From NCBI GenBank assembly GCA_013314715.1, contig JABUFC010000004.1, positions 6,777 to 70,776 on the forward strand: a stretch of DNA of 64,000 nt, in the 5' to 3' direction. Shown here one piece after another: positions 18,326 through 45,786 of the stretch (positions within the stretch are counted from its first letter, which is position 1; each line of letters starts with the position of its first letter). Origin of the DNA: Bacteroidales bacterium (GTDB lineage: Bacteria > Bacteroidota > Bacteroidia > Bacteroidales > GWA2-32-17). The notes beneath the pieces are model-generated. The model was not told the origin of the DNA. It saw only the letters and a list, made by a program, of their open reading frames with translations, and did not search any database. A program made the translations under genes and the position numbers.

Positions 18326-18439
18326 AATTCCTTTTCAAATAAAGTTTTTGTGTCGATAGCAAGAACTTTATTATTTTTCAGAACGTTTCATTTCATTGAT
18401 ATTGAAAATATATTAACTTGCAATCAAAATCAAAAGACT

Positions 18440-18886: not shown

Positions 18887-18887
18887 C

Positions 18888-21300: not shown

Positions 21301-21306
21301 TTACTT

Positions 21307-22212
21307 ATGATATATCAGCGAATGACTCATTTGCGTGAATTAGAAAACGAAGCTATTTATGTTATACGTGAGGCAGCTGCACAGTTTGAACGACCTGCAA
21401 TGCTTTTTTCGGGAGGTAAGGACAGCATTGTTATGTTTCATCTTGCTCGAAAGGCATTTTGGCCGTCAAAAGTTCCTTTCCCTTTATTACATATCGATAC
21501 AGGGCATAATTTTATCGAAACTCTTGAGTTTAGAGACGAATTGATGAAAAAAACAGGAGCAACCTGTATTGTTCGTTATGTTCAAGATACCATAGACCAA
21601 GGAAAAGTTATAGAAGAAAAAGGCTATAATGCAAGTCGAAATGTTTTGCAAACAGTAACATTGCTCGATGCTATTGAAGAATTTAAATTCGACTGTGCTT
21701 TTGGTGGTGGACGTCGAGACGAAGAAAAAGCACGTGCTAAAGAACGCTTTTTTTCACATCGCGATGAATTTGGGCAATGGGATCCAAAAAACCAACGTCC
21801 CGAACTTTGGAATATTTTTAACGGCAAGAAAAAAATGGGCGAACATTTTCGTGTATTCCCACTTAGTAATTGGACAGAACTCGATGTTTGGCTTTATATT
21901 TTATTGGAAAAAATTGAAATACCATCTATTTATTTTTCTCATGAACGCGAAGTATTTAATCGCGATGGCGTATGGCTAGCAACGGCTCCTTTTATGTTGA
22001 TGAAACCAAACGAAAAAGCCGAAATAAAACGGGTGCGTTGTCGCACTATTGGCGACATAACATGTACGGGACTTGTTTTATCCGAAGCCAATACGGTTGA
22101 AGATATTGTGGCAGAAATAGCAGCTACACGCGTTACCGAACGTGGGGGACGTTATGACGATAGACGAAGCGATACGGCTATGGAAGATCGTAAAAAAGAA
22201 GGATATTTCTAA
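21307..22212 (+). CDS. cysD: sulfate adenylyltransferase subunit 2
   Basis: 301 aa with PP-loop LFSGGKDSIVM and conserved C-terminal RGGRYDDRRSDTAMEDRKKEGYF. Confidence 0.9.
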   Translation: MIYQRMTHLRELENEAIYVIREAAAQFERPAMLFSGGKDSIVMFHLARKAFWPSKVPFPLLHIDTGHNFIETLEFRDELMKKTGATCIVRYVQDTIDQGKVIEEKGYNASRNVLQTVTLLDAIEEFKFDCAFGGGRRDEEKARAKERFFSHRDEFGQWDPKNQRPELWNIFNGKKKMGEHFRVFPLSNWTELDVWLYILLEKIEIPSIYFSHEREVFNRDGVWLATAPFMLMKPNEKAEIKRVRCRTIGDITCTGLVLSEANTVEDIVAEIAATRVTERGGRYDDRRSDTAMEDRKKEGYF

Positions 22213-22267
22213 TTTTTATATGAAAAAATCGATAAATAAACTATAAACTAAATATAGCAAACAAAAT

Positions 22268-29142: not shown

Positions 29143-30324
29143 CTATATATATTCTAAAGTTACTGTTTTTAACCATTTTTCTTCTAATTCATTGGCAATT
29201 TGACGTATGACGGTACGTCGTATTTCAATATCTATTGGCAAATTAGGATCTTGGTGTGCTTCGTTAATTTTAGTTCCAATAATAAAATGAATATAATCGC
29301 TATCGAGCAACATTTTAACAATTAAATTAGCAGGTCCTTTTAAAAATAAATATTCTTGTTTAAAATGTTTAAGCAAGTCTAAGACTTTGGTAAGTGTTAA
29401 AATGCCTTCAGTTATTAAATCCACTCCGGGCATATATGAAACGGGTGGGAGGTCGGGATCGATCATATCGAATGTGTCTGTAATGGTTTGTTTTAGTTCG
29501 CGTGCAAAAATATCGGCAGTAGTTGCTCCGCAAATTATTTTTTTGCCTTCAAAATTTAATAGTTTTTGTGCATATGTTTTATCATTTTGTTTATCGAATG
29601 GAGGACCTGTGCATATAAGCAATGAGCGAGGCTCTCTAAAATAAACAACACAAGCCGAAGTGTCGTCGCCAGGCATAAATGAGTCGTGTTTTACTGCTTT
29701 TTTTACTATTTTGTCAGCTAGTTCTTCAGATGATATGGTTGGATTTTTTTGAATATTAGCAGCAATATAATTTTCGATATTATCTATGCCCCATCCAAAA
29801 GGCATTTCGTTTGTTCCCATTCCTGCTTGTACAACACCATCGCTCATAAAAATAATTCTATCTTCTTTTTGTGATTGGAAGGTACAAGTAAGAATTTCTT
29901 TACCTTTGAATTTATCGTTATTTAGCCACATGCATTGCCAACCTACGTCGAGTACTTTATGTCCTCTAAAAACGAGGGTTTTAGGGTTATCATATTCCAC
30001 AATATGAACAGTTCCATCTGATTCAATATCGACAATGGTAAATGTAGCATAACTCATTTTTCGCACGCTACAGACTGGAAGGGTGTTTAATAGAATTTCG
30101 GCTATTTTGTAATGATCGCGATGATTTTTAGTAAAACTCATAGCCATAGTAGCCGTAAGTGTCGCTAAAATGTTTGCTTTAACGCCATGTCCCATGCCGT
30201 CCGAAAGGACTAAAATTGCTCGCTTTTCTTCTTTTATGCGTTGACTAAGAAAAACATCGCCACAAATGCGTTGATTATGTTTATATTGTTGCCTGCAAAA
30301 AACATCTATGTAAAAACGGTTCAT
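29143..30324 (-). CDS. PP2C-type SpoIIE/RsbU family serine phosphatase with extra C-terminal domain
   Basis: 393 aa with ICGDVF...AILVLSDGMGHGVKANILA and SDGV motifs. Its ATG overlaps the upstream stop in an ATGA (30321-30324). Confidence 0.8.
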   Translation of the reverse strand: MNRFYIDVFCRQQYKHNQRICGDVFLSQRIKEEKRAILVLSDGMGHGVKANILATLTATMAMSFTKNHRDHYKIAEILLNTLPVCSVRKMSYATFTIVDIESDGTVHIVEYDNPKTLVFRGHKVLDVGWQCMWLNNDKFKGKEILTCTFQSQKEDRIIFMSDGVVQAGMGTNEMPFGWGIDNIENYIAANIQKNPTISSEELADKIVKKAVKHDSFMPGDDTSACVVYFREPRSLLICTGPPFDKQNDKTYAQKLLNFEGKKIICGATTADIFARELKQTITDTFDMIDPDLPPVSYMPGVDLITEGILTLTKVLDLLKHFKQEYLFLKGPANLIVKMLLDSDYIHFIIGTKINEAHQDPNLPIDIEIRRTVIRQIANELEEKWLKTVTLEYI

Positions 30325-32180
30325 TTTTTACCAGTTTTATAAGACTGAATAACAGAATAAAGCATTTGTTCGGTAGCAGCAGCTTCTTCGCCTAATAAAA
30401 ATCCTATTTTTTGAACCATTTGCAGATTTCTGTCGATAACTTCGTTTAAGCGATTGATAACTTCTTCGTCGCGAATTTCAGGTGTAAATAAATCGCGCAA
30501 TACTGCACCAACAATTTTGTTTTTCTTTATCGAAAAAATAGTGAGATTAATAAGTTTATCGTTAAATTGTATGTCTTTGTTAGTAATGGGTTCGTCGTTT
30601 TCGAGAACGTATGAAAAGAATTGAACTAAATTGGGAGGTAATAAAGTTTTTAAATCGGCACCTGTGAGTTCAGGTATAATTTCGCTTATTTCAATGGCAT
30701 CTTTTCCGAGCAATGTAATAAAACTTTGATTGCTGCGGATTATTTTAAGGTTGAAATCGACAATTACTACTGCTGCTGGAAGTTTTTGTAGCGTAGCATT
30801 GAGTATTTCCATTGCTTGTTGAGCTTGCTCTTTGTCTTTTGTAATTTGTTCCTGAGTTTTTTTTATTTCTTCGTGCGATTTTTGCATTTCTTCGATTTTC
30901 TTTTGAAGGCTGGTAATATAACGATTTCTGTTGTCGAGCGAATTATGAAGGCACATATCGCTTTTGGCTAGTCCTGCAGCCACATAAGTTGCAAAATCTT
31001 TACACGATTTATAACCACAAACTTGGCAGCCTTTGTCGTAATTATCTTCGTGTTTTTTTAATATTTTGAGTGTTTGCAATATTTTTTCTTCAGAAATATT
31101 TAGTCGCTGATCGTTTTCTTCAAATATTGTTTTTATAGCCAACGATTTATATTTATTAACATCCTCTTGCCAATTTTTAAGTTTTATAGCTTGAGCGCGT
31201 TTTTTTGTGTATTCTGATACGAGAGTCGTTTTTTGTAAAATATCTTCATTGCGACTCATACCTGGACCATTAAGGCAACCTTTACAATAAAACAAGTTTA
31301 AATGTTTTTGAACTTGAACGATTTTATTCGAAAACTCTTCTAAAGCATTAATAACATTATTTTTATCTGAAAACGTAATAATTTCACTATTAATATTGCT
31401 TTGGTCGAGGTCGGTTAGTTCAATCCATCCGTTGGGAATGGGAAATAAGCTTCCCATTCTGCTTTGTGGACCATCAAAGTCGCTGTATTCTAATTGTGCT
31501 TCGTTTATGTTAAGTTGAGAAAATAATTCTCTTAATTCTTGAAAAGTTAGTACACAGTTGATATGTTCTTCTGCATGGGGTTTAAAAAAGGCTTTTTTAG
31601 TTGCTGTACACGACGTTATAAAAATTATTTCTGTATCTTGCCCCAATTGTTTGCGAGCAATTTTTGCCATAATTTGCGATGGCGTAAGAATGGGAATTAA
31701 ATTCGAAATTAGTTCCGGAAAGTATTTACAAATAATATCATTAATTACCGGACAAGCAGAAGTTATATAATGTTTGCCTTTAAAATCGCGAATAATTTGT
31801 TGATATTGAATAGACATTAAGTCAACTCCAAACGAAACGTCAAAAATATATTTACCGCCAATTTGTCTGAGCATTTGTGCAAATTTACGATAATCGCTAA
31901 TGTCTGGAAATTCGGCAGCAATTGCAGGGTCAATAAGTATAACATTGTGTTCTTTTTTCAAAATTTGCATGGCTGTTGGAATCCAATGTTGGTATTGAAT
32001 GGCTTCGGTAGGACAAGAAGGAACACAGCTGCCACAATTAACACATCGATTATCGACAATGCGTGCAAAACTTTGACTGGTTTTTACTTCTATTGCTTTA
32101 ACAGGACAGGTTCTAACACAAGAATAGCATAAGATACACTTTGAAGCATCGATGTCATAGATTGCTTTTGTGTTTTCCAT
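30321..32180 (-). CDS. putative sensory [FeFe]-hydrogenase (HydS-like) with C-terminal PAS domain
   Basis: 619 aa with an N-terminal 2x[4Fe-4S] ferredoxin (CILCYSCVRTCP, CVNCGSCVPSCP). H-domain motifs are ITSACPV (L1, Ala at the relay-Cys position), ITSCTATKKA (L2) and FYCKGCLNGPG (L3). An extra Cys cluster GCQVCGYKSCKDF...DMC is followed by a coiled coil and a PAS-like ~110 aa. Confidence 0.8.
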   Translation of the reverse strand: MENTKAIYDIDASKCILCYSCVRTCPVKAIEVKTSQSFARIVDNRCVNCGSCVPSCPTEAIQYQHWIPTAMQILKKEHNVILIDPAIAAEFPDISDYRKFAQMLRQIGGKYIFDVSFGVDLMSIQYQQIIRDFKGKHYITSACPVINDIICKYFPELISNLIPILTPSQIMAKIARKQLGQDTEIIFITSCTATKKAFFKPHAEEHINCVLTFQELRELFSQLNINEAQLEYSDFDGPQSRMGSLFPIPNGWIELTDLDQSNINSEIITFSDKNNVINALEEFSNKIVQVQKHLNLFYCKGCLNGPGMSRNEDILQKTTLVSEYTKKRAQAIKLKNWQEDVNKYKSLAIKTIFEENDQRLNISEEKILQTLKILKKHEDNYDKGCQVCGYKSCKDFATYVAAGLAKSDMCLHNSLDNRNRYITSLQKKIEEMQKSHEEIKKTQEQITKDKEQAQQAMEILNATLQKLPAAVVIVDFNLKIIRSNQSFITLLGKDAIEISEIIPELTGADLKTLLPPNLVQFFSYVLENDEPITNKDIQFNDKLINLTIFSIKKNKIVGAVLRDLFTPEIRDEEVINRLNEVIDRNLQMVQKIGFLLGEEAAATEQMLYSVIQSYKTGKK

Positions 32181-32183
32181 ATT

Positions 32184-32447
32184 TTACTTTATTTTAAGTT
32201 GAGGATAGTGAGTTTTTAAATATTCAATGACTTCATGAAGTGAATGAAATGTTTTTAATGTGTCATCTATTTTACAAAAAGGACCATCTTTACATTCACC
32301 AAAACAGCGTGTGCCTTTAAAATCGATAATATGTTCTAGATGATTTTGATGAAGGTATTCATTTATTTCTTTTACTAAATATTTATTCCCTCGTGCAAAA
32401 CAAGAACTACCTAAGCAAATATTTATTTTTATCTTTTCAATCGACAT
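32184..32447 (-). CDS. small thioredoxin-like [2Fe-2S] ferredoxin
   Basis: 87 aa with the Cx4C...Cx3C pattern (CLGSSCFARG ... RCFGECKDGP), as in NuoE-type clusters. It is the first gene of the minus-strand sensor operon. Confidence 0.7.
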   Translation of the reverse strand: MSIEKIKINICLGSSCFARGNKYLVKEINEYLHQNHLEHIIDFKGTRCFGECKDGPFCKIDDTLKTFHSLHEVIEYLKTHYPQLKIK

Positions 32448-32523
32448 GTGAATAAAAATTTTTTCAAAGGTAAATAAAGTTTCGTTAAAAAGTTGTTTAA
32501 AAACATTTGTTAAAAAAATAACA

Positions 32524-32541
32524 TTGTTTGTGTGTTCACAA
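32524..32541. promoter_or_regulatory. candidate Rex operator
   Basis: TTGTTTGTGTGTTCACAA compared with the consensus TTGTGAAnnnnTTCACAA. The right half-site is perfect and the left half matches 4 of 7. It lies in the divergent promoter region just upstream of the -7 box of hydC. Confidence 0.35.
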
Positions 32542-32549
32542 AAAAGTAT

Positions 32550-32557
32550 TAAATTTG
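32550..32557 (+). promoter_or_regulatory. -7 box TAAATTTG for the hydCBA-sensor operon
   Basis: Matches TAnnTTTG 23 nt upstream of the ATG at 32580. Confidence 0.45.
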
Positions 32558-32579
32558 CCGTATCTATAAATCAATTAAA

Positions 32580-33032
32580 ATGAGCACATTTTCTGATATT
32601 TTATCTTCATATTCTTCTAATAATTATACGCAAATATTGGCTGTTTTTCAGTCTTTGCAGCAACAAAATGGTTATATTACCCATGCAGATATTATTCAGG
32701 TTTCGCAATATTTTAATTTAGCCAGCGAAGAAGTTTATAGTCTTTTGTCGTTTTATCCTCAATTTCGTTTTAAACCCAAAGGTAAATATCATATTGAAGT
32801 TTGTAAGCAATCGGTATGTAGAATGCATAAAAACGATGAAATTGTTTTTTTTATTCAGAATATAATTGGTATAGAACCGGGAGAAATAAGTAGCGATGCT
32901 TTGTTTAGTTTCGATTTTGGTTTGTGTACAGGCATTTGTAAGCCACATATACGTATAAACGATGATATTTTTATTTTTCAATCGCTTGATGAATTAAAGA
33001 AAATTCTTGAACAATATATTAAACTTCGTTAA
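32580..33032 (+). CDS. hydC: NuoE-like [2Fe-2S] subunit of trimeric [FeFe]-hydrogenase
   Basis: 150 aa with Cx4C (VCKQSVCRMH) and Cx3C (GLCTGICKPH) in the thioredoxin-like fold order. Confidence 0.75.
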   Translation: MSTFSDILSSYSSNNYTQILAVFQSLQQQNGYITHADIIQVSQYFNLASEEVYSLLSFYPQFRFKPKGKYHIEVCKQSVCRMHKNDEIVFFIQNIIGIEPGEISSDALFSFDFGLCTGICKPHIRINDDIFIFQSLDELKKILEQYIKLR

Positions 33033-33033
33033 G

Positions 33034-34950
33034 ATGACACTTGTTTCTACTATAAGCGAAATTATAGATAAAGTTATAAATAATGATTTTTCATTTAAAT
33101 GGAAACAACATTTGTTATTCGAAAGTGTAAATAAACCGACTTGCTTTATTTCTGTTACTTCTGCATGTCCAGTTCATACTATTCTTGGAATAAAAAGCGA
33201 AATTCAACGTTATGCTAATGAACGACATATAGAAATTGAGGTATATGAAACGGGGTCGATAGGTATTCTTTCTTTTGAACCGGTTTTGGCTATTCAGTTG
33301 CCGGGCAAAGCAAGACTTTTTTATGCAGAAATAAATGCCGAAGATATATTTGCTTTGTTAGAAGCAGTTTTTTCTTCGTGGGTTCAACATGTTCATTTAA
33401 TAGGTCAATTAGTATTTGAAGGAAGTGAGCCTTGGGCGGGTGTGCAAGTTTTATCTGAAAAATCATGGTTTTGTTTTCCAACGCGTTTTATTACCGAAGC
33501 TTGCGGTTTTGTTTTGCCCGATTCGTTACGATCTGCATTAGCATGTAATCGTTGGACTACTTTCTTAACTTCACTTCGAAACATGTCGCCTGGCGATATC
33601 GTTTTAACCATAATTGAAAGCGAATTGAAAGGGCGGAGTGGTAGTGGTTTTAATACAGGAAAAAAGTGGAAGCTTGCATCTGAAAGAAAAACGGAACAAT
33701 GTTACCTTATTTGCAACGCATTTGAGAGTAATCCGGCATCGGCAATTGGTAGATTATTATTAGAAAGCGACCCACATTTAGTACTCGAATCAATAGCCAT
33801 TAGTGCTTATGCAAACCAATGCAATAAAGCTTATTTAGTTGTTCCTTATTATTATTCATTGGCTATAAAGCGTATTCAAAAAGCTTTGGATGATGCCTAT
33901 GAAAATGGATTATTAGGATTTGATATACAAAAAAGTGGTTTTTCGTTAGATATTATATTGTTTGTCGCTCCCGGTTCATATATCATGGGCGAAGAAACGG
34001 CTATTATTCAAGCTATAGAAGGCAAAAAGGCAATGCCCATAGAAAAACCACCCTATCCAATACAAAAAGGGTTATTTGGAAAACCTACCATTATTAACAA
34101 TATCGAAACGCTTTGCCATGTAACTTATATTGTACGATATGGTGTTCAATGGTTTAAGTCGTATGGTAATTCGCATGGTTATGGTACAAAATTGTTTTCT
34201 GTTTCAGGTGCAAACGTATTAAGGGGTGTTTTTGAACTGCCGTTAGGTACCAGTATGAAAGATATTTATGAGCTTACAAAATGGTCTGATAACGATTCTG
34301 TTAAAGCAATACACATAGGAGGTCCTATCGGTCGCATTTTTAGTCATACTTCATTAAATGAAATGAATTGCAATTACGCCGATTCTATGCAGAATTCATT
34401 TTTAGGTGATGGAACGATTTTGTTTTTAGACAATTCGAACTGTATGGTCGATTATGTTAAAAACGAAATACAATTTATTTGTAGCGAAAGTTGTGGCAAA
34501 TGCTTACCATGTCGCGAAGGGAGTAAAAAAATTGAAGACATTTTAAATTTGTTAACCCATCGCCCTGAAAACGAAAAAAATAAAGAAACGCTTGAGCGTA
34601 TAAAACAAGTAATGCAATTAAACGAATTAGCTACTACTATAGCTGAAACTTCATTGTGTGGATTAGGTAAGCACTTTCCGCTTTTAGTCAGCGATTTAAT
34701 ACAACATTTTAAAGAAGAACTTGAAGAACATTTGTATGAACGACATTGTAGAGCTGGAGTTTGTAAAAATTTGCGACGTTATTATATAAATGTCGAAAAA
34801 TGCATTGGATGCCATGTTTGTTTTAATCGTTGTCCTCAGAATGCAATTGTTGGCGTTATTCAACATCCGCATTTTATTATACAAGAAAAATGCAATTCAT
34901 GTGGAATTTGTTATGGAGCGTGCAAGTTTAGTGCTATAGAAATTAAATAA
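33034..34950 (+). CDS. hydB: NuoF-like NAD(P)H/FMN-binding subunit of trimeric [FeFe]-hydrogenase with C-terminal 2x[4Fe-4S]
   Basis: GRSGSGFNTGKKW (nucleotide site), GEETAIIQAIEG (FMN), SCGKCLPCREG plus SLCGLGKHFP (N3-type cluster), and CIGCHVCFNRCP / CNSCGICYGACK. The start was trimmed from TTG 33007 to the ATG at 33034, 1 nt after the hydC stop. Confidence 0.85.
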   Translation: MTLVSTISEIIDKVINNDFSFKWKQHLLFESVNKPTCFISVTSACPVHTILGIKSEIQRYANERHIEIEVYETGSIGILSFEPVLAIQLPGKARLFYAEINAEDIFALLEAVFSSWVQHVHLIGQLVFEGSEPWAGVQVLSEKSWFCFPTRFITEACGFVLPDSLRSALACNRWTTFLTSLRNMSPGDIVLTIIESELKGRSGSGFNTGKKWKLASERKTEQCYLICNAFESNPASAIGRLLLESDPHLVLESIAISAYANQCNKAYLVVPYYYSLAIKRIQKALDDAYENGLLGFDIQKSGFSLDIILFVAPGSYIMGEETAIIQAIEGKKAMPIEKPPYPIQKGLFGKPTIINNIETLCHVTYIVRYGVQWFKSYGNSHGYGTKLFSVSGANVLRGVFELPLGTSMKDIYELTKWSDNDSVKAIHIGGPIGRIFSHTSLNEMNCNYADSMQNSFLGDGTILFLDNSNCMVDYVKNEIQFICSESCGKCLPCREGSKKIEDILNLLTHRPENEKNKETLERIKQVMQLNELATTIAETSLCGLGKHFPLLVSDLIQHFKEELEEHLYERHCRAGVCKNLRRYYINVEKCIGCHVCFNRCPQNAIVGVIQHPHFIIQEKCNSCGICYGACKFSAIEIK

Positions 34951-35017: not shown

Positions 35018-36682
35018 ATGAGAAATAATTCTACAATATCAATTACTATAAATGGGATAAAAGTTAAAGCATCGAATGGGGATATATTATTAAATGTTTT
35101 AAACGAAAATGGCATTAAAATACCTACACTTTGTCACTTAAAAGGGCATATCCCACAATATCCATGTCGTATTTGTCTTGTGTATAACGAAATAGATCAG
35201 ACGTATATTCCTTCGTGTAGTACTATAGTTAGCAATGGCATGAGTATTCTAACTCATACACCGAGTTTAATTAAAAAACGGCAACAAATATTAGAAATGT
35301 TGTTGAGTAGCCATCCCGATGATTGTTTATATTGTGTAAAAAATGATGCATGCCATTTACGTATGTTGGCGAGCGAACTTAGTATTGACCAGCGGCGATT
35401 TTATGTAAAAAACATTAAACAAAATAATGATAAATCATCGGCTGCTATTGTTCGCGAATATGCCAAATGTGTTTTATGTGGTAAGTGTATAGAAATATGT
35501 AATCAGCAACAGTGCCATATCTTGCAATTCAACTACAAAGGTATAGAATCGAGGGTAGAGCCTGTATTGGGTAAATTATTAAACCAATCGAATTGTGTTT
35601 ATTGTGGTCAGTGTATAATGGTTTGTCCTACTGCCTCGCTTTACGAAAAAGAAAATATTTCAGCTTATTATACTTCACTTGATACTGTTAATAACAGTAC
35701 TTTTGCTATAATTTCGCCGTTATTAGAATTCGATTTCTCTATCAATTTATTGAATAAATCGCCTCGGGTAAGAGAAAATCAGGCTATTTCTATTATTAAA
35801 AATTCTGGAGCTAATAAAATTTTTAACCTCAATGCCGGAATAGATTTATATTTAAACGAATTGCTCCATGAATTCATTAAAACTAAAAATAAAGGGAATA
35901 CTTTAATCTCTGGTTTCTGTCCATCAGCAGAGTGGTATTTAAAAAAAATGTCATTACCAGACCATTATAAGATTTCAAAAATTCAAAAACCCATACAAAT
36001 TCTTCAACAATTGCTTTTAACGATTTTTCCTAATCAAATATTTCAAATTCATAGTTTCACTACTTGTTTAGCCGAAAAGCAACTTTTTTCGAATCAGGTT
36101 TTAAAAAATAAAGCGTTTGCATATACTGTTCGAGAGTTATTAAAAATAAAAAATGCCACAAGTACATCGTCTATTCGCAACAACTTTAAAACCGATGAGC
36201 CTTTTCATTTATATAGTGGATTGTCATTTTTGCCTTTTATTCCAGGTGGTTTGAGTGAAGCATTGGCTCGTATGATATACCAAATAAAAACACAAAAAGA
36301 TTTAGAAAAAGATAAATTAGAAAGCTTTAGAAATATTGAACAATTTTCGATTCAAACTATTGTAATTGAAAAACAAACTTATATTTTTGGAATTATAAAT
36401 GGCATTGGCAATGTTAAAAAGGCTTTAGAAAATTGGAAAGATAAATCAATTGATTTCATAGAAATATTAGCCTGCCCTAATGGTTGTGTTATGGGTGGAG
36501 GTTCTTCTTTTGAGCACATGCAGAATTTCGATTTAAAGTCTTTTGAAAAGCAGTGGTACGAAAATGTAGAACGAGCACTTATACGCTATCCTCAACGTAA
36601 TTTGCAGCTCATGTCTATGTTGGAGGAGGCTAAGAATAAAACAAATGGAGAAAAAAATTTATTAATAAACGAAGACGAATGA
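35018..36682 (+). CDS. hydA: [FeFe]-hydrogenase large subunit homologue with intact F-clusters but divergent H-cluster pocket
   Basis: 554 aa. N-terminal [2Fe-2S] (LCH...PCRICLV...SCS), His-ligated cluster HPDDCLYCVKNDAC, and CVLCGKCIEIC / CVYCGQCIMVCP. H-domain motifs are SGFCPSAEW (canonical TSCCPxW), FTTCLAEKQL (canonical MPCxxKKxE) and EILACPNGCVMGGG (canonical ExMACxGGCxxGGG). Confidence 0.8.
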   Translation: MRNNSTISITINGIKVKASNGDILLNVLNENGIKIPTLCHLKGHIPQYPCRICLVYNEIDQTYIPSCSTIVSNGMSILTHTPSLIKKRQQILEMLLSSHPDDCLYCVKNDACHLRMLASELSIDQRRFYVKNIKQNNDKSSAAIVREYAKCVLCGKCIEICNQQQCHILQFNYKGIESRVEPVLGKLLNQSNCVYCGQCIMVCPTASLYEKENISAYYTSLDTVNNSTFAIISPLLEFDFSINLLNKSPRVRENQAISIIKNSGANKIFNLNAGIDLYLNELLHEFIKTKNKGNTLISGFCPSAEWYLKKMSLPDHYKISKIQKPIQILQQLLLTIFPNQIFQIHSFTTCLAEKQLFSNQVLKNKAFAYTVRELLKIKNATSTSSIRNNFKTDEPFHLYSGLSFLPFIPGGLSEALARMIYQIKTQKDLEKDKLESFRNIEQFSIQTIVIEKQTYIFGIINGIGNVKKALENWKDKSIDFIEILACPNGCVMGGGSSFEHMQNFDLKSFEKQWYENVERALIRYPQRNLQLMSMLEEAKNKTNGEKNLLINEDE

Positions 36683-38661
36683 ATAAAAATACAAACCATA
36701 AACTGGTATATACCATAAAAGAGCGTTGTAGGGTTTGCTATACTTGTGTAAGAGAATGCCCTGCCAAAGCTATTCGCATCAATAATGGACAAGCCGAAGT
36801 TATACATGAACGTTGTATTGGTTGTGGAAATTGTATTAAAGTTTGTAGTCAAAATGCCAAGACATTTGTACGAAATGATGCCGATGTTTTGGAGCTTTTA
36901 AATGGCTCTAATCAAGTTTTTGCTCTTTTAGCTCCAAGCTTTCCAGTTGAGTTTTGCGAAGTTGATAATTATAAAAAAGTACTCGGAGCAATTAAAAAAC
37001 TTGGTTTTTCTAAAATTATAGAAGTCGCATTTGGGGCTGAACTGGTTGCTCGTAAATACAAAGAATTATATCAAAATGAAAATTCGTTTTATATTACATC
37101 CGATTGTCCGGCTGTTACTTTTTTTGTACGCCAATATTATCCGGAGTTAACGGTTAATTTAGCTCCTATTGTTTCGCCCATGGTTGCTACTGCTAGAGCA
37201 GTAAAAAAATATTACGGACAAGATGTGAAGTTGGTTTTTATTGGTCCTTGTATATCTAAAAAAGTGGAGAGCAACGAAGTAGATGTAGCAATAACCTATA
37301 AAGAGCTACGTAGCTTGTTTAATCAAAAACACATTGTCGAAGACGAATGTCCAGAATCTGATTTTGATTATCCAAAAGCATATAAAGCAACTGTTTTTCC
37401 TATAAATTTTGGACTATCGCAAACGATGGGACGTTATTATGACTTGTTCGAAAATAAATTTTTAGTTGCTCAAGGAAAAGAAGACATGCAGCAGGCTATA
37501 AAATGGTTTTCGGACGAAAGTCACGAAAAAAAGAATCTTGAATTATTGTGTTGCGAAGGTTGTATTATGGGACCTGGCATTACCAATCCTATTGTTAGTA
37601 AATTTGTAAAACAAAATTTACTTATAAGCTATGCACGTCAAAGGTTAAACGAAACGACTACCGAAGAGTTTGAGCAAACGATACAAGCTTTTAGCGGCAT
37701 AGATTTATCCACGAAATTTACTCCACAAGATAGAAGAATTGCTATCCCATCGTACGATGAAATAGATAAGGTTTTAAGAAAAATGGAAAAAAAAACAGCA
37801 TCCGATATGCTTAATTGTGGAGCGTGTGGTTATGCAACCTGTATCGATCATGCCATTGCCATTATTGAAGGAATTGCCGAAACAGAAATGTGCTTACCCT
37901 ATACCATTGAGAGTCTGCATAAATCAGTAAAAGATTTAGCACTTACCAACGATAAGCTTAGTTCGGCACAAATAGCCTTGCGACAAGCCGAAAAGCTTGC
38001 ACACATGGGACAACTGTCGGCAGGTATCGCTCACGAATTGAATAACCCCCTTGGTGTTATTATTATGTATTGTAATTTGTTGCTCGAAGAGTGTCCACCC
38101 GACTCTCCTATGCGTAAAGACCTTGAATTAATAGTAGAACAAGGGAACCGATGCAAAAAAATTGTTAGCGGATTATTAAATTTTGCTCGAAGAAATCAAG
38201 TGAATGCCACTGAAACAGATTTGTATGCATTAACCGAAAAAGCCTTAGAAGCAGTTCTTATACCCGATTTTATTAAAACGAATATTCAAGCAGACAGAAA
38301 ACCAATGTTGGCAATAATTGATGCGGATCAAATATTGCAAGTATTAATTAATCTTATTAGAAATGCAGCCGATGCTATAACTCATAAATCTGGCATTATT
38401 GATATTTTTTTAACAGAAGAACCCAATTATTTTGTTATTAAAGTTAAAGACAATGGAACAGGTATTGCCGAAGAAAATAAAGCAAAACTTTTTGAACCCT
38501 TTTTTACAACTAAACCCATTGGGGTTGGAAATGGTTTGGGCTTGCCAATTGTTTATGGAATTGTTAAAATGCATAAAGGTATTATCGAAGTAGAAACCAA
38601 CGATGATGTTAAAAAAGGACCAACAGGAACAACATTTATTGTAAAACTACCTAAAAATTAA
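36679..38661 (+). CDS. putative sensory [FeFe]-hydrogenase domain fused to a histidine kinase
   Basis: 660 aa with 2x[4Fe-4S] (CRVCYTCVRECP, CIGCGNCIKVCS). H-domain motifs are ITSDCPAV, GPCISKKVE and LLCCEGCIMGPG, with an extra cluster NCGACGYATCIDH...EMC. A coiled coil follows, then H-box SAGIAHELNNPLG and an ATPase with N (LIRNAADA), DNGTGI and GLGLPIV. ATGA overlap with the hydA stop. Confidence 0.8.
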   Translation: MNKNTNHKLVYTIKERCRVCYTCVRECPAKAIRINNGQAEVIHERCIGCGNCIKVCSQNAKTFVRNDADVLELLNGSNQVFALLAPSFPVEFCEVDNYKKVLGAIKKLGFSKIIEVAFGAELVARKYKELYQNENSFYITSDCPAVTFFVRQYYPELTVNLAPIVSPMVATARAVKKYYGQDVKLVFIGPCISKKVESNEVDVAITYKELRSLFNQKHIVEDECPESDFDYPKAYKATVFPINFGLSQTMGRYYDLFENKFLVAQGKEDMQQAIKWFSDESHEKKNLELLCCEGCIMGPGITNPIVSKFVKQNLLISYARQRLNETTTEEFEQTIQAFSGIDLSTKFTPQDRRIAIPSYDEIDKVLRKMEKKTASDMLNCGACGYATCIDHAIAIIEGIAETEMCLPYTIESLHKSVKDLALTNDKLSSAQIALRQAEKLAHMGQLSAGIAHELNNPLGVIIMYCNLLLEECPPDSPMRKDLELIVEQGNRCKKIVSGLLNFARRNQVNATETDLYALTEKALEAVLIPDFIKTNIQADRKPMLAIIDADQILQVLINLIRNAADAITHKSGIIDIFLTEEPNYFVIKVKDNGTGIAEENKAKLFEPFFTTKPIGVGNGLGLPIVYGIVKMHKGIIEVETNDDVKKGPTGTTFIVKLPKN

Positions 38662-38664
38662 AAT

Positions 38665-39042
38665 ATGGCAACAATACTATTAGTGGACGACGATTACGAC
38701 TTTTTATATCAGTCGAAAATCTGGTTTTCGCAAGCTAATTTTAAAGTAATAACATGCAATGCTAGCACTGAAGCAGCTAAGATTATAGAACAAATAAAAC
38801 CCGATATAGCACTCATCGATTTAATGATGGAAACTCACGATGCTGGATTTGTTTTGGCACGAAAAATAAAACAGCTCTATCCCAATTTGCCCGTTATTAT
38901 GCTAACAGCTGTTAGTTCAGAGTTAGGAATTTCGTTCGATACCAACGATCATAATTCAAAAAATTGGCTTCATGTTGATGCTATTATTGATAAAGGGAAA
39001 GATTTTAAATATATACAAAAAATTATTGAACAATATATTTAG
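38665..39042 (+). CDS. single-domain response regulator (receiver only)
   Basis: 125 aa with ILLVDDD, phospho-acceptor context IALIDLMM, and VIMLTA. There is no output domain. Confidence 0.85.
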   Translation: MATILLVDDDYDFLYQSKIWFSQANFKVITCNASTEAAKIIEQIKPDIALIDLMMETHDAGFVLARKIKQLYPNLPVIMLTAVSSELGISFDTNDHNSKNWLHVDAIIDKGKDFKYIQKIIEQYI

Positions 39043-39044
39043 TT

Positions 39045-40175
39045 ATGGAAGTACTTAAAATTTTAGTTATAGACGATGAAGTCGGAATACGTAGTGGGGT
39101 CAATAGAATATTGAACAACTATAAAGTTAATTTTCCTTTTTTAGATGACGAAATTGTATTTGAAGTAAAAGAAGCAGCTTCGGGCGAGGAAGGTATTGAA
39201 ATTATCAATGCCGATAATCCTCAGGTTATTTTGCTTGATAATAAGCTGCCAGGAATGCAAGGATTAGAAGTGCTTGAATATATTCAAAGAGAGAAAATAG
39301 ATGCCTTAGTAGTAATGATAACCAGTTATGCTTCGTTAGAAGTAGCTGTGCAGGCAACACGAAAAGGTGCTTACGATTTTATTCCAAAACCTTTTACACC
39401 ACAAGAACTTAGAACAACTATGGAAACTGTTGCTCGTCATGTCTTTTTAAGAGGTTTAACAAAACAATTAAACACTCAAGGAAAAGTGGTTCGTTTCAGG
39501 TTCTTATCCGTATTATCGCATGAACTTAAAACCCCTCTTAATATTATTGAAGGTTATTTAAAAATGATGAAAGAACGACAAGCAGGCAACGATCTTAGTG
39601 CATACGAAGAAGTAATTGATCGTTCTTTGTTTCGCATACAAAATATGCGGAATTTAATTTTTGACTTACTCGATTTAACCCGTATTGAAACAGGACAAAA
39701 AGAGCGAAAATTATTGCCTGTTAATTTAGCTAAAATAGCAGCTTTATCTATCGATACTTTTACACCTTTAGCCATTCAAAAATCGGTAAAGATCATATAC
39801 GAAGGTCCATCAGAAGTGTTTTTAGATGCTATGGAAGAAGAAATTGAAATTGTATTCAATAATCTTCTTTCTAATGCCATAAAATACAATAAAAACGAAG
39901 GAGAGGTACGATTAATTATTGAGCCTAAAGTAGATCATATTATCGTTATGGTTAAAGATACTGGTATTGGCATGAACGAGGAGGAGGTAAAACGCGTTTT
40001 TGAGGAGTTTGTTAGAATTAAAAATGCAAAAACACAAAATATTTCGGGAAGCGGATTAGGGCTTTCCATTGTTAAAAAAATATGTGAATATTATAATGCT
40101 GAAATTAAAGTAAGTAGCAAAGAAAATCAAGGTACAACGATAATTATTAAATTTAATAAAACCAAATATGAATAA
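39045..40175 (+). CDS. hybrid receiver-histidine kinase
   Basis: 376 aa. N-terminal REC (ILVIDDE, VILLDNKLPGM, KPF), then H-box LSVLSHELKTPLN and HATPase (NLLSNAIKY, DTGIGM, GSGLGLSIV). Confidence 0.85.
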   Translation: MEVLKILVIDDEVGIRSGVNRILNNYKVNFPFLDDEIVFEVKEAASGEEGIEIINADNPQVILLDNKLPGMQGLEVLEYIQREKIDALVVMITSYASLEVAVQATRKGAYDFIPKPFTPQELRTTMETVARHVFLRGLTKQLNTQGKVVRFRFLSVLSHELKTPLNIIEGYLKMMKERQAGNDLSAYEEVIDRSLFRIQNMRNLIFDLLDLTRIETGQKERKLLPVNLAKIAALSIDTFTPLAIQKSVKIIYEGPSEVFLDAMEEEIEIVFNNLLSNAIKYNKNEGEVRLIIEPKVDHIIVMVKDTGIGMNEEEVKRVFEEFVRIKNAKTQNISGSGLGLSIVKKICEYYNAEIKVSSKENQGTTIIIKFNKTKYE

Positions 40176-40785
40176 TATTCCTGAAAAAACAGTAGAAAGA
40201 CTTAGTTTGTATCGAAGAGTACTAATAGATGTTTTACCTACGCAAGATTACATATATTCTCATGAATTAGCATCATTGCTTCATTTAACACCTGTACAAG
40301 TTAGACGCGATTTAATGTTAATTGGTTATAATGGTACTTTACGCAAAGGATATAATATTCAAGACCTTTTGCAACGCTTATCTGATATTTTAGATAGCAA
40401 TACTCCCACCCATATTTGTATTGTAGGCATGGGAAATCTTGGTAGAGCTATCACAGGATATTTTAATGGTCGTCGATCGAAACTTAGAATTGTTGCTGCT
40501 TTTGATAACGATGTTACAAAAACTAACCGAATTATTAGTGGAATTCAATGCTATTCATCGAACGAAATGTACCAAGTTATAAAAAAAGAAAATATTAGTA
40601 TTGGTATTATAACTACACCACCAGAAGTTGCAGCAACGGTATGCGAACAATTAGTAGCTTCTGGAATTAAAGGAATTATGAATTATACACCGGCACGTTT
40701 AAAAGTTCCCGAATCGGTGTTTTTAGAAGAATATGATATGATAACCTCACTCGAAAAACTGGCTTTTTATATTTATCACGCATAG
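40168..40785 (+). CDS. rex: redox-sensing transcriptional repressor Rex
   Basis: 205 aa with winged-helix N-terminus ERLSLYRRVL and Rossmann motif IVGMGNLGRA. It overlaps the upstream kinase gene by 8 nt. Confidence 0.85.
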   Translation: MNNIPEKTVERLSLYRRVLIDVLPTQDYIYSHELASLLHLTPVQVRRDLMLIGYNGTLRKGYNIQDLLQRLSDILDSNTPTHICIVGMGNLGRAITGYFNGRRSKLRIVAAFDNDVTKTNRIISGIQCYSSNEMYQVIKKENISIGIITTPPEVAATVCEQLVASGIKGIMNYTPARLKVPESVFLEEYDMITSLEKLAFYIYHA

Positions 40786-40789
40786 CAAA

Positions 40790-41686
40790 ATGAATGTTTA
40801 TCATAGCTTTGATGATTTTATTGAGATAAAGAATCCAGTAGTAACTACCGGTAGTTTCGATGGAGTTCATCTGGGGCATAAAAGTATTATTCAGCGTTTG
40901 AATCATATAGCGAGGCAGATTGACGGAGAATCGGTTCTGATTACGTTTCATCCGCATCCGCGAAAGGTGCTTTATCCCGATACGGTTGGCAAAGAGCTGT
41001 TTCTTATTTATTCGCAAGAAGAAAAGATTTTAGCACTCGAAAAAGCCGGATTGCAACATTTATTTATTATTGAATTTACAAAAGATTTTGCTCAAACATC
41101 TTCCATCGATTATGCACGAAAAATTTTACATCAAAAACTAAAAGCCAAAGTGGTAGTAGTAGGATTTAATCACAATTTTGGACACAACCGCGAAGGTAAT
41201 TACCAAATGCTTTTCGAACTTGGACAAGCGTTAGGCTTTTGGGTAGAACAGTTGCCCGCCTTAGAAATTGAGCACGAATCGGTAAGCAGTACCCGCATAC
41301 GCAAAGCCATTATGAACGGCGAAATTCAAAAAGCCAATGCTTGCCTCGATGACAACTATTTATTGATTGGGAAAATTGAAAAAATAAATGATTTCTACCA
41401 TATTGCTGTTGAAGAAGATTGCAAATTGCTACCTCCATGCGGTATATATGCAGTAAAAGTATCATTACGTCATCAACAAGAAAAAGCTCTTGCCATCATC
41501 GAGAAATTCGAAAACAATCAAAACAGAACGTTAAAATTACTCACCGGCAAAGAATTGCAATGGCTGAATGAAAAGGCAGTTGTGCTTTTTTATAAAGAAC
41601 TATCTATCTGGAGCGAAAATACGCCTCAACCCGATTTATTGGAGCTATACGAAATATTGAATAAAATTGAAGAATGGATATATTAA
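40790..41686 (+). CDS. ribF: bifunctional riboflavin kinase / FMN adenylyltransferase
   Basis: 298 aa with TGSFDGVHLGH and SSTRIR motifs. Confidence 0.88.
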   Translation: MNVYHSFDDFIEIKNPVVTTGSFDGVHLGHKSIIQRLNHIARQIDGESVLITFHPHPRKVLYPDTVGKELFLIYSQEEKILALEKAGLQHLFIIEFTKDFAQTSSIDYARKILHQKLKAKVVVVGFNHNFGHNREGNYQMLFELGQALGFWVEQLPALEIEHESVSSTRIRKAIMNGEIQKANACLDDNYLLIGKIEKINDFYHIAVEEDCKLLPPCGIYAVKVSLRHQQEKALAIIEKFENNQNRTLKLLTGKELQWLNEKAVVLFYKELSIWSENTPQPDLLELYEILNKIEEWIY

Positions 41687-41688
41687 TT

Positions 41689-44600
41689 TTATCGAAAAGT
41701 TATTATTTTCTTAATCACTAGTTCTTTACTGTCGCTTACTTTTAACAAATATAATCCTTGATTTATATTCAAATCAAAACGAAAAGGACTTGATTCGTTG
41801 ATTTTTAATTGCTGTTGAGCTATTACATTCCCACTTAAATCGGTTAATTCAACCCAAAGTCTATCACCAACCGAATGATATACTTCAATCTGAACCTTAT
41901 TGCCCAATCCTTGCCCAACCTGAACGGTTAATTTGTTATTATTTACGGTACTAAGCAAAGCTACTATTCCAAGCTCTTTCTGATAACCATCGTTGTCTAT
42001 TTCAATCAATTTATAATAAATATAACCGATGGGGACATCCTTATCTTCAAGTGTATAAGAAGTAAATTCGTTTGTATTGCCTTTTGACAAAACCATCCCG
42101 ATAGGAATAAAATGTTCTAAATCGTTTACAGAGCGTTCAATAGCGTAATGACTACAATTTATTTCCGAAGCTGTATTCCATTGTAGATAAGCCGTATTGT
42201 TTTTATACTCGGCTTTAAAATCAATCAATTCAACTGGTAGAGGTCCAATATTCGATTTGGCTATGGCAAAGTCTGAAAAAGCTGTTAATGCTTTTCTTTG
42301 GGCAGTTACCCAGCCACTTCCCATCGATTGATCGCTATTGTTATGTGTTCCTTCTGAAACCCAATCAAAACTACTGTTGGGGCGTTTAATAACCGCATGC
42401 GAGCTGGCAATAGGACCAGGATTGGTGTGTCCACGCGATGTTAAGCTAATATCGTAATTAAACGTACCTGCGTTGGGAGTAAAAGTCCAAAAACCATAAT
42501 CGAGTAATTCGGTAAGTAGGCTCCCCGATATTAATAAGTTCAACGAAGCAATGTTGGTAGAAGTAACATGTGGATTAGTAAATTTTCCATCTATGTATGT
42601 TAAACCGGAAGAGCTATTAAGCTTGATAGTTCCCAATTCGTAATAGCTGCTGGAGCCTAATGGAAAATCGTAGGTGCCGGTAGAAGCTACATAACGACGT
42701 AAATTACCTGAAATGTAACTATTGGTGCTATGTCCTAATATACTTGTAGTGGAGGTATTGTTTACAATAACTTTATTGCTACCGGTAACAACTAAACCCT
42801 TTGTAAGGCTTAAAATATTGCTTACTGTAATATCGTTATTGAGCGAAAATGTATGGGTTGCGGTTGACTTATTAAGGGTGAGATTATAAAAATTGGCATT
42901 ACCACTCCCAGAAAAGCTAGTATTTGCAGACCCTACAAGATTTACTAAACCATTTGTAAAACTAATAGTGCCGTTTTGAGTAATATTGCCATAGACATCC
43001 AAACGGCTGTTAGCGTGGTTCATGGTAAGTGTACGACCGCTTTGAATTTCAATATTGTTGCATTCGGCAGTGGTATATCCATAGGTTGATGGATTTCCTA
43101 TGGTGGGTTCATTGGTAACACCTGATGTTGGAATTAACACATCTACAGATGAAGTAGGAATTTTAAAAGTGTTCCAGTTTTCGCAGTTGAACCAATTAAT
43201 GTCAGATTGACCTGTCCATTTGCCATCCACATAAGTGCCAGCATCAATAATCATTTGTGGACAAGAAGTATTACCTTTATAATCAAAGCCTCCCGTAGCA
43301 TAAGCTGTATTATCGGCATATGTATCCCAATTGGCAGTCCCGTCGTTGATTAAGGCAATCCAATCAAGACGGTTACGGGTGGTGCTTGAAAAATCAATAG
43401 CGTCAGGGTCATCAAACTTTACTTTTGCATTTCCAACTACATTGGTAGTAAAACAGTTCATATTTGGATATAGATTGCAAAATGTAGTGCCTCGATCGCT
43501 ACCTGTTGGCGATGAAGCATTCCATCCACTTTCAGTCCAACCATACAAAACATTGCCGTTATAGGTGCTATGATGAGAAGTGGAATTGGTCCATGTACCA
43601 CCTTGCATAATCCACATATCATCATCTGAATTAAGGTTAAATCCACCAATACTGCCACCAGATAAAGCACTTTTTGTCCAGTTGGCATCGATGGATCCAC
43701 ATGTCCAAATGTCGAAATGAGAACTTGAAGTTACATTTCCACCAGACACTGTCGATTCAAAAACAATAATAGTACCTTTAGGTAATGTTGTCCCGGTGCG
43801 AGTAATGGTTATAACTCCTTCGGTTCCGCCCCATTCACCTGCATATTGTCGTTCGTAACCATTATCGGTTATATATATTTGAGTTCCGGGTAAAATATCT
43901 TTAAAACAAACAAAAGCTATTTGATCGCAACCCGAGGTAGGCAAGTTGGTATTTACTGCAAGAATAGCTAAGTCACCAGGTTCGAGTATAGTAACATTAC
44001 TAATATCGAAATTACTGCTGTTTACATCAGAATATCCCGATGAAGAAGCCGTCAAATAAAAGTTAGTACCAGAAACGGTGTGAATGATGCTTGAAAAAGT
44101 TGCTACACCGCTTGAGGCAATGACGCTAAGTGGCGAGCCGGTCATTGTGCCTGTGCTAATCAACGAAACAGAACCCGTAAAATTAATATCGACATTCCCA
44201 TTTGCATCGGTTAACCCAACTTTAACGGCCGGGGTCATGGTTGCACTAACACCCGTGGTTGTTGGCTGTGTAATAAAACGTAATTCTGTACCAACAACGG
44301 TAAAAACATTTTGTCCATTGGTAGAGCTAATAGCTGTAAATGCCGCACATTGAGAGCCAGAAGCATCGGTAGTAACATTGGTGTTGGAAATAGTAAATAC
44401 AAAATCATCGCCATCGTTATTGCTACCACTGTTGTTGGGGCTTGTTTGAACCGATAGTCTTAGTGTTAGTGTTTTTGATGTTCCATCGGCAATAGAAATA
44501 AGCGGTGAACCTGAAAATTGAATTTGATTTGTAGTAATTACAGCATCCGCAAGTTTTGTTGTGCCATCAAATAAAGCACAAGCTTGAATAGCGTCTGACC

Positions 44601-45684
44601 AGTCGTTCATGGCATTGCCTGCTGCTTGCGTGATGGTTATATTATTAATAATGGTAGCAAGGGCATCGGCATCGGTCAGGTCGCTTCCACCTTCGCGTAT
44701 GGTAAATTGCCAAACCTGAACTCCATCGGAGGTAGTGTTTATACTGGCATCGTTTTCTAACGAAGAAACTGTTGTTGCTTCTCCATCTGCTGTAATAAAA
44801 TCGGTTTCGATTGAAAGTGTTCCAGTACCTTGAATGCTAAAGTTGTATGGATTTTCGTCGGCATCGCTATTGGCAATGCTTATGGTTGCTGTTCGTAATC
44901 CGGCGGCGCTTGGATCAAAAGTAACTTGAAAAGTTGTGCTGCCCGATGCTGCAATGCTGTTTGACGGGATGGCTGTTACTGAAAAATCGGATGCATGCGT
45001 ACCGCCAATTACCACATAGGGGCTTGCTCCTGTTAAATTCAATGCAGCAGTTCCTGTATTCTGAATAGTAAATGTGCGAACAACACTTCCGCTCGAAACG
45101 TTGACACTTCCGAAATCGGTATGGTCAGCGGTAGAGGGTGTGGCATCACCATTGGCAATGGAAATTCCATTCCCTTGGATATTAATTTCGGGAGCGGAGA
45201 CGGCGTTCAGAGTAACAATAATATCATGTACATAAACTGCTTCGCTTGGAGATGATAAACGAAGCTTTGTAGAAGAGCTTGTGTTATAGGAATATGTGTA
45301 TGTAGCACCTATGGTGCCAATTGCGCTGAATGTTGTAAGATCTTGCCATGAACTTCCATCATAATACTGTAATTTTAAGGTTCTTCCGGCAGCTCCGGCA
45401 GCTAAATGAACTTCAACTGTACCAACAGAGCTTAAAGTTGGTAATTCAACAATACCCGACGAAGATTTCATCTGTATTCTTCCAGCACTACATGTACCAG
45501 TAGCAGCTGCAGCATTTGCAACAATGCACTCTGTCATTGAAACGGTTCCAGCAGTAATAACTTGTGTGTAAGATCCATAACTAACATGATTTGTCCAGCT
45601 CTGAATATTTTCATTAATTTGACCTTTCCCAATAAAAAAGCCAAATAATAAAATAATTAATATTTTATACTTTAACATATTCAT
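41689..45684 (-). CDS. very large secreted surface protein, T9SS cargo
   Basis: About 1331 aa from the ATG at 45684 ([17 protein letters not shown]); the track start is TTG 45720. It is Thr/Ser/Asn/Gly-rich with beta-rich repeats. A segment [28 protein letters not shown] resembles choice-of-anchor-D/ASH-type Ig domains. The C-terminus ...[22 protein letters not shown] is T9SS CTD-like. Confidence 0.7.
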
Positions 45685-45786
45685 GTTTATACTACTACTA
45701 AAACGTTTAAAACTACACAAAGGTTGCTTTGTTATAGTTAAATAATTGTTAATAAATAAGGAAAACTATTTACTGTTTTCGGTTGT

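Follow-up and report, generated by a model that had tools for sequence, protein, structure and literature searches.

The locus described here raises the question of whether the large subunit of what looks like an electron-bifurcating [FeFe] hydrogenase still acts as a hydrogenase, and it bears on how putative H2-sensing [FeFe] hydrogenases relay their signal and on what they regulate. The gene at issue, hydA* (35018..36682, + strand), encodes a 554-aa HydA homologue (HydA*) and lies in a 64,000-nucleotide stretch of DNA from a Bacteroidales bacterium (assembly GCA_013314715.1, contig JABUFC010000004.1, positions 6,777 to 70,776), which is referred to below as the window and to which all coordinates apply. 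Together with its two partner genes, forming hydC*B*A*, it encodes a derived, probably non-catalytic form of the group A3 (HydABC/BfuABC) electron-bifurcating [FeFe] hydrogenase. HydA* is probably not an ordinary hydrogenase, because the residues that normally hold the [2Fe] centre are lost. The reading that we favor, at a probability of about 0.5, is that the HydA* complex is a non-catalytic or non-canonical iron-sulfur (Fe-S) relic of a bifurcating hydrogenase, used as a redox module coupled to sensors.

By its position, hydA* is the orthologue of hydA in an operon common in Bacteroidales, with a NuoE-like hydC and a NuoF-like hydB adjoining, and its product has an M3-type N-terminus. Its residues 1–215 comprise one [2Fe-2S], one His-ligated [4Fe-4S] and two further [4Fe-4S] cluster sites, followed by a remodelled H-domain (residues 216–554). 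The F-cluster part is canonical, as an earlier note on this sequence had stated: all 16 N-terminal ligands (C39/C50/C53/C67, H99/C103/C106/C112, C151/C154/C157/C161 and C193/C196/C199/C203) are present in HydA* and invariant in a 45-sequence alignment. The protein matches PF13510, PF10588, Fer4 and PF02906 in Pfam, and the same analysis detected no PAS, kinase or other signalling domain and no C-terminal Cx2Cx4Cx16C motif in it. Its H-domain match (PF02906) reaches only 71.6 bits vs. 151 and 118 bits for two sensor-type paralogues of the same locus, and it scores 322 bits against the NCBIfam group A6 model, for which the cut-off is 765. H-domain identity to canonical relatives is only ~23%. 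The H-domain fold is present, with a predicted local distance difference test (pLDDT) score mostly of 85–97 in the AlphaFold2 (AF2) model, for which the top Foldseek match is 8a6t_A (T. kivui HydA1, E 4.7e-36), also the closest solved relative, with CpI entries next.

The departures from the canonical pattern are described here in CpI numbering, as read from HMMER alignments to four solved chains (8a6t_A of T. kivui, 7p5h_A of T. maritima, 7q4v_A of A. woodii and 7qhf_A, a CpI variant) and from a second alignment (MAFFT L-INS-i, numbered on CpI), which agrees with the first on the substitutions. The span originally singled out as degenerate, 35909-36502, corresponds to codons 298–495 of the open reading frame (ORF) 35018-36682, beginning with SGFCPSAEW and ending at the final Gly of EILACPNGCVMGGG, and the changes proposed within it are borne out by both alignments. 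In the L1 equivalent SGFCPSAEW (35909..35935, +; canonical TSCCPxW), C299 is replaced by Phe and C300 is kept; KPIQ (35987..35998, +) replaces SPQQ, with S323K and Q325I on either side of a retained P324; the L2 equivalent FTTCLAEKQL (36056..36085, +; canonical MPCxxKKxE) combines M353T, P354T, K358E and a change of the trailing Glu to Leu (E361L) with retention of C355 and K359; and the L3 equivalent EILACPNGCVMGGG (36461..36502, +; canonical ExMxCxxGCxxGGG) has M497L and preserves E495, both Cys (C499 and C503) and GGG; TamHydS, an active protein, has Leu at 497 too (PMC8163306). Other altered pocket positions are A230S, S232L, A272I, E279L, F417P and G418F, and P231, S319, E282 and G421-G422 are kept along with P324. 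The four Cys of the [4Fe-4S]H cluster (C300, C355, C499 and C503, or C301, C350, C486 and C490 in the query numbering) are invariant, which agrees with the earlier reading except that the bridging Cys, then listed beside the four, is one of them (C503) and not a fifth. A two-residue insertion reported for L1 did not hold up in general: it is alignment-dependent, being seen against CpI only and absent against T. kivui HydA1 and in the multiple alignment, and its anchoring Trp is Leu in most relatives. The alignments to the four solved chains restore neither a Cys at 299 nor a Lys at 358, and a relocated Lys is possible at two places, K359, which is invariant in 45/45 sequences of the alignment, and the new K323.

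Several of the replaced residues (S232, Q325, S323, F417 and A272) are ones that we take to be contacts of the [2Fe] subcluster, and most of them have given way to bulkier residues; the role assigned to K358 and the list of pocket residues draw in part on Knörzer et al. (2012). When side-chain volumes are summed over 12 CpI positions taken to line the [2Fe] site (a crude proxy), the main clade gains 210 to 270 cubic angstroms vs. −240 to +37 cubic angstroms in all other HydA classes of the operon, and this excess is, by a rough estimate, of the order of the volume of the [2Fe] subcluster itself. The loss of E279 was dropped as a diagnostic feature, because otherwise canonical Bacteroidales HydA proteins also have Q or L at this position. 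Natural variation at the proton-relay position is extensive among the Bacteroidota relatives of HydA: the top 120 HydA homologues have C (~60), D (~29) and also F, V, L, S, N, H, A and T, and Asp299 is frequent.

Overall, the changes in HydA* exceed what characterised sensory hydrogenases tolerate, as exemplified by TmHydS, which keeps the residues that hydrogen-bond the cyanide (CN) ligands (PMC10055695). This bears on the first and main alternative, in which HydA* would house a complete H-cluster in an unusual pocket, serving within the HydABC frame as an H2-binding site that is very slow and sensor-like, Phe299 blocking the proton relay so that H2 binding shifts the redox state of the Fe-S chain without turnover. 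Groups C and D, the sensory ones, are marked by loss of C299 (PMC8163306, PMC10055695), and both the strong purifying selection on HydA* and its placement in an operon devoted to H2 and redox signalling would suit such a role. Nevertheless, we regard it as somewhat unlikely, given that HydA* loses K358, S232, Q325 and S323 while the CN-hydrogen-bonding residues are kept in characterised sensors (PMC10055695), that position 358 is subject to drift (E, Q, N or L), and that ~250 cubic angstroms of side chain have been gained in the pocket.

The group carrying HydA* within the Bacteroidales is rare. The altered motifs are common to 10 protein clusters with 42–56% identity; a search of 5.8 billion proteins yielded 8 further clusters with these odd motifs (44–56% identity), the next matches being at ~33%, and an H-domain phmmer search against 1.84 billion representatives returned only two close representatives, the rest scoring at most 90 bits, P0122 apart. 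The latter, third-best by H-domain match, was rejected as a relative of the clade, as its high rank results from the summed score only. It is a predicted protein of 4122 aa with seven tandem, nearly identical canonical H-domains (TSCCASW, MPCTVKK, EIMMCEGGC) and, C-terminal to them, what look by eye like flavodoxin- and reductase-type regions; it is eukaryotic-looking and may represent a polyprotein or an artefact of assembly. The clade consensus reads S[TSG][FY]CPS, [FY][TS][TSG]C[ILV]A[EQNL]K and [EDI][IV]LAC[PTL][NDG]GC, with K/T/I-P in place of S-P-Q-Q. Position 299 is F or Y in every member and position 353 is T or S; the pocket positions S233, F300 (~90%), P406 and L484 (query numbering) show little or no variation; and the former ligand-contact positions 358 (E/Q/N/L), 361 and 326 vary freely across the clade.

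In the closest pair of loci (L001 and L005, with a synonymous divergence dS of 0.5–1.0), the ratio of nonsynonymous to synonymous substitution rates (dN/dS) is 0.093 for HydA*, 0.089 for its H-domain, 0.081 for HydB and 0.099 for HydC, and 0.05–0.066 for the signalling genes. The substitutions in HydA* are conserved in the clade and are under purifying selection; they are neither chance changes nor decay. A second alternative, that these genes are functionless relics on the way to becoming pseudogenes, could appeal to the faster evolution of HydA, HydB and HydC relative to the neighbouring genes, and we consider it very improbable: simple decay is excluded by the dN/dS of ~0.09, HydA* is full-length in 10/10 clusters (as are HydB and HydC wherever the contig spans them), all the Fe-S ligands are invariant, and both the overlap of hydA* with the next gene (ATGA) and the region upstream of hydC are conserved.

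The remodelling is not confined to HydA*. The NuoF-like hydB* (33034..34950, +) keeps the N3-type [4Fe-4S] site and the C-terminal 2x[4Fe-4S] sites; its likely start is the ATG at 33034, two bases past the hydC stop (the listed ORF began at the TTG at 33007). The NuoE-like [2Fe-2S] subunit encoded by hydC* (32580..33032, +) keeps its four Cys and is fast-evolving in the clade. In HydB*, the FMN/NADH loops read GRSGSGFNTG, NAFESNPASAIGR and GSYIMGEET and depart from the consensus (GRGGxGF/YxTG, NAxES(D/E)PGAFxDR and GAF/YVCGEET), and in the N-terminal Trx-like domain Ser stands in place of the Cys pair of the others. Among the ~80 operon orthologues listed, two of these features are unique to the clade, namely ESNP[AS]S..GR for ES(D)PGAF.DR elsewhere and GSYIMGEET for GAFVCGEET elsewhere. 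Two others are not diagnostic: GRSG in the glycine loop also occurs in other non-canonical classes, and loss of the Asp94-equivalent was rejected as a sign of lost FMN binding because this position varies (D/A/G/K) even in classes with a canonical HydA.

In the window lineage, and only there, divergence of HydA, HydB and HydC is far greater than that of the signalling genes. At a matched divergence of the co-encoded sensor kinase HydS-HK (46–56%), identity to the other loci is 30.0% for clade HydA, 39.0% for HydB and 28.0% for HydC, vs. 47.0 +/- 4.7 (minimum 39.6), 51.4 +/- 3.1 (minimum 44.7) and 41.8 +/- 5.6, respectively, for other pairs of loci, whereas the similarity of the hybrid receiver-histidine kinase (RR-HK) and Rex of the clade to those of other loci is the same as elsewhere. 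Within the clade, identity is 80–89% for the signalling proteins, 54% for HydA, 51–55% for HydC and 65% for HydB. Neighbor-joining trees leave the sister group unresolved, with a different sister for each gene and long stems. The two reactive ends of HydABC (the [2Fe] pocket and the nucleotide/flavin loop of HydB) have been remodelled together, with the Fe-S wire and the ligands of the H-site cubane remaining under selection. This joint divergence of HydB and HydC with HydA would be left unexplained by tuning of an H-cluster alone, which tells against the slow, sensor-like site considered above.

The same pattern invites a third alternative, neofunctionalisation, whereby the pocket and its new invariant residues (e.g., H345, H397 and K323) would bind another ligand or metal, HydB* would use another nucleotide or flavin, and the complex would be an oxidoreductase of a different kind. 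A clade-specific set of invariant residues has replaced the canonical set rather than drifting, the electron wire is kept as both of its ends change, the long stem branch is followed by constraint, and the operon closes with a conserved FAD synthetase gene, ribF. We still find this quite unlikely: no candidate substrate-handling gene has been gained, the gene content is identical to that of the ordinary operon, RibF is also present in operons with a canonical HydA, and most of the new pocket residues are hydrophobic, as would suit packing better than catalysis.

To what extent the window clade stands apart from other forms of this operon can be judged from a scan of GTDB species genomes, in which a general N-terminal pattern recovered at least 80 Bacteroidota loci (L011-L090) with orthologues of 30–34% identity; no member of the window clade was among the matches listed, to which the counts in this paragraph also refer. 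Most of the 80 loci have an identical 11-gene layout. Classified by residues 299/353/358/497, their HydA proteins fall into CMKM (29, canonical, including the CpI reference), ATMM plus ASMM (29), CTKM (6), DMKM (4) and further small classes including S/T-x-A/G-S/T, and SPQQ/TPQQ, E361 and a small pocket are common to all of these non-clade classes. The combined loss of C299 and K358 is therefore not unique to the window, being shared by the A299/M358 class (29/80 loci). In this class (e.g., L019, L027, L038, L055 and L087), Ala299, Thr/Ser353 and Met358 are accompanied by retained SPQQ, E361 and M497, and the HydB on the contig always has GRSGGG and NA[KR]ESDPG (usually NAKESDPG), with Lys/Arg at the Asp94-equivalent. 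About one third of the Bacteroidota loci with the operon thus carry an Ala299/Met358 HydA together with a NAKE HydB, a class for which, as for the window HydA* clade, our literature searches found no description.

The 11-gene layout, which is identical on every sufficiently long contig of the clade, consists of PP2C, HydS-PAS and a Trx-like protein on one strand and HydC, HydB, HydA, HydS-HK, a response regulator, RR-HK, Rex and RibF on the other. In the window, the divergent unit (29143..32447, −) encodes the Trx-like [2Fe-2S] protein (32184-32447, −), the HydS-PAS sensory hydrogenase with TSACP (30321-32180, −) and a PP2C/SpoIIE phosphatase (29143-30324, −). Downstream of hydA*, whose stop codon shares 4 bases (ATGA) with the hydS-HK start, come hydS-HK (36679..38661, +), a receiver-only response regulator (38665-39042, +), the hybrid RR-HK (39045-40175, +), Rex (40168-40785, +) and the RibF FAD synthetase (40790-41686, +). 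RibF is the last operon gene in nearly all loci listed, whatever their HydA class, and the flanks beyond it differ. Pfam analysis of 46/47 window ORFs of at least 150 aa, i.e., all except a 1343-aa surface-type protein (41689-45720, −), revealed no HydE-, HydF- or HydG-type protein, in line with the earlier remark that these maturases are missing from the window, and no molybdopterin or formate dehydrogenase ORF. The window encodes just two radical-SAM proteins (606-1691, −, and 57555-58523, −), which are MqnC/CofH-like and SPASM-type and look like neither HydE nor HydG.

Unlike HydA*, HydS-HK and HydS-PAS both possess the C-terminal Cys motif and PAS or kinase signalling domains. HydS-HK combines a sensory-type [FeFe] hydrogenase domain (TSDCP, GPCISKKVES and ELLCCEGC) with an FeS motif and HisKA/HATPase, and its GPCISKKVES substantiates the earlier statement that the kinase-fused paralogue keeps PCxxKKxE. 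In the window clade it retains APS, [ST]SDCP, GPCxxKKxE and CCEGC, as it does across 67 compared sequences (66 loci and the window). Asp at the C299 position and Lys358 occur together in all the most frequent variants of these 67. Among the replacements of C299 reported in prototypical enzymes, Asp alone leaves activity neither abolished nor severely lowered (PMC10055695), and because Asp299 and Lys358 are retained, HydS-HK may be more H2-reactive than Ala-type sensors. HydS-PAS, for its part, has C299A and, at 358, Thr/Ser followed directly by a Lys (TSCTATKK; in relatives, TSCTASKS), so that this +4 Lys register may be common to several non-canonical classes. The presence of two apparently competent sensors in the locus again counts against a sensor-like site in HydA*.

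With respect to regulation, the region upstream of hydC (32448-32579) has a mean column identity of 80% in four clade loci and contains an 18-bp TTGTT..TTCACAA palindrome (TTGTTTGTGTGTTCACAA, 32524..32541), which is Rex-box-like and is followed by a TAnnTTTG-type promoter element. Related TTGTTA-N6-TAACAA/TCACAA boxes lie 5' of hydC in 49/79 loci among the matches listed, many of them reading TTGTTAATAAAATAACAA, and these boxes resemble the Rex operator. The 18-bp palindrome is probably an operator for the operon-encoded Rex. The strict 20-bp Rex consensus TTGTGAA-N6-TTCACAA was found 8 times vs. 9.9 expected, no better than chance. Two AACAT(N)TGTT repeats are also present in this intergenic region.

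Returning to HydA*, the favored reading of a non-catalytic or non-canonical relic may be spelled out as follows. The [2Fe] cavity would be largely filled, as estimated from residue volumes only, and the H-site would therefore hold only a [4Fe-4S] cluster, as in apo-HydA or eukaryotic Nar1. The HydA*B*C* complex would no longer turn over H2 with NADH and would persist as a ferredoxin-facing Fe-S redox module, a scaffold or an electron sink or source; in concert with the two intact sensors (HydS-HK and HydS-PAS/PP2C), the two-component proteins and Rex, it would signal H2 and the redox state. A more specific version, which we put forward tentatively and consider rather unlikely as stated, makes the pseudoenzyme an input module, in which the Fe-S wire connects the H-cluster of HydS-HK, a co-translated protein, with the ferredoxin pool and the kinase integrates H2 and redox signals; by extension, HydABC across the operon, including the A299/M358 class, would be a part of the sensor rather than a target of its regulation.

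A number of observations weigh against this reading, some of them in favor of the slow, sensor-like site. The four H-cluster Cys (bridging C503 included), P231, P324, G421-G422, E282 and S319 are kept, as would be expected if a [2Fe] subcluster were still attached. The invariant K359 adjoins position 358 on an AF2-predicted helical segment and might take over the role of K358, and K323, present in the main subclade, could be a relocated positive charge for the CN ligand. The natural Leu497 and Ser353 of TamHydS (M353 being Ser/Thr and M497 being Leu in both proteins) do not prevent it from binding [2Fe] (PMC8163306). The A299/M358 class (29/80, among the matches listed), in which C299 and K358 are missing as well, presumably has some function. 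The dN/dS of HydA* is only ~1.5x that of the neighbouring genes, so that strong constraint persists, as it would in an enzyme. Finally, since the D94-equivalent of HydB varies in classes with a canonical HydA, a part of the apparent degeneracy of HydB is not diagnostic. Of the conclusion originally drawn, that the large subunit may be catalytically unusual, very slow and sensor-like, or not a hydrogenase at all, the non-canonical pocket stands and can now be described as clade-conserved and under purifying selection; a choice among the three possibilities is beyond what sequence alone can provide. That account had missed the involvement of HydB and HydC, the known conserved Bacteroidales operon, the milder loss of C299 and K358 in the A299/M358 class, and the invariant K359 with the new Lys323.

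The retention under selection of the Fe-S chain, the sensors, the two-component proteins and Rex, at a locus where the canonical active-site residues are gone, leads to the prediction that, in this operon, HydABC does more than turn over H2 and is coupled to the sensors physically or electronically. As regards annotation, HydA* could be counted as a bifurcating hydrogenase in domain-based surveys, though its production of H2 is doubtful.

Elsewhere in the window (G+C ~32%), a sulfate-activation set (20704-23539) comprises an APS kinase, a CysD-like protein of the PAPS-reductase family and a CysN-like GTPase, with a sulfotransferase at 7098-7973, and a Peptidase_S24 (UmuD/LexA-like) gene is followed by an overlapping Y-family polymerase (IMS/UmuC-like) gene at 18350-20150. 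Large proteins with type IX secretion C-terminal sorting domains, which fit the Bacteroidota, are encoded at 1979-4576, 25337-28087, 41689-45720 (in this case assigned by reading the sequence, outside the Pfam scan) and 62746-63831.

A comparison with known systems places the window complex closest to the group A3 HydABC/BfuABC enzymes (8a6t, 7p5h and 7q4v), which provide its best sequence and fold matches and share with it the three subunits, their order, the domain architecture and the Fe-S ligands; by contrast, HydA* lacks the non-Cys signature residues of L1, L2 and L3 and has its CN-contact and pocket residues replaced, and HydB* lacks the nucleotide loop and the N-terminal Cys pair. Eukaryotic Nar1/NARFL offers a precedent for a hydrogenase fold in which the H-site Cys bind a [4Fe-4S] cluster only, with no [2Fe] subcluster. 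Nar1 functions in cytosolic Fe-S assembly, differs from HydA* in lineage and domain set, and keeps more of L1–L3, including the Lys, than HydA* does. Another HydA homologue without conserved L1–L3 is HylA, a proposed electron-transfer subunit of HylABC-FdhF2 in Clostridium acidurici (PMC6085437), which resembles HydA* in this respect and in having NuoF/NuoE-like partners. It differs in being reported from Firmicutes only and in its link to FdhF2 (PMC6085437), the scan of the window having found no formate dehydrogenase; in addition, HylB is said to hold a flavin-binding motif that is altered in HydB*, and HydA* keeps all four H-site Cys. The putative sensory groups C and D (TmHydS, TamHydS), of which loss of C299 is a hallmark (PMC8163306, PMC10055695), have lost C299 and the proton pathway as HydA* has, and TamHydS also shares the changes of M353 to Ser/Thr and of M497 to Leu (PMC8163306); an M497L variant of a prototypical enzyme does not properly integrate [2Fe] (PMC10055695). 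In these sensors the CN-hydrogen-bonding residues are kept while C299, M353 and M497 vary (PMC10055695), whereas HydA* replaces K358, S232, S323 and Q325 and has an M3-type N-terminus and HydBC partners. As for the operon as a whole, it has already been described in outline by Zheng and Huang (2024; PMC11406978) as BfuC-B-A-T clusters, in which bfuA is followed by the gene for a BfuT of the histidine-kinase type and, in three Bacteroidota (Perlabentimonas, Tenuifilum and Williamwhitmania), a second bfuT lies upstream; in that account BfuA is the H2-converting subunit, and the only departure noted is variation at P1–P3, e.g., Ser at the C299 position. The gene arrangement of the window is the same, and the HydA, HydB and HydC of the window clade lie outside the range of all the operon orthologues compared.

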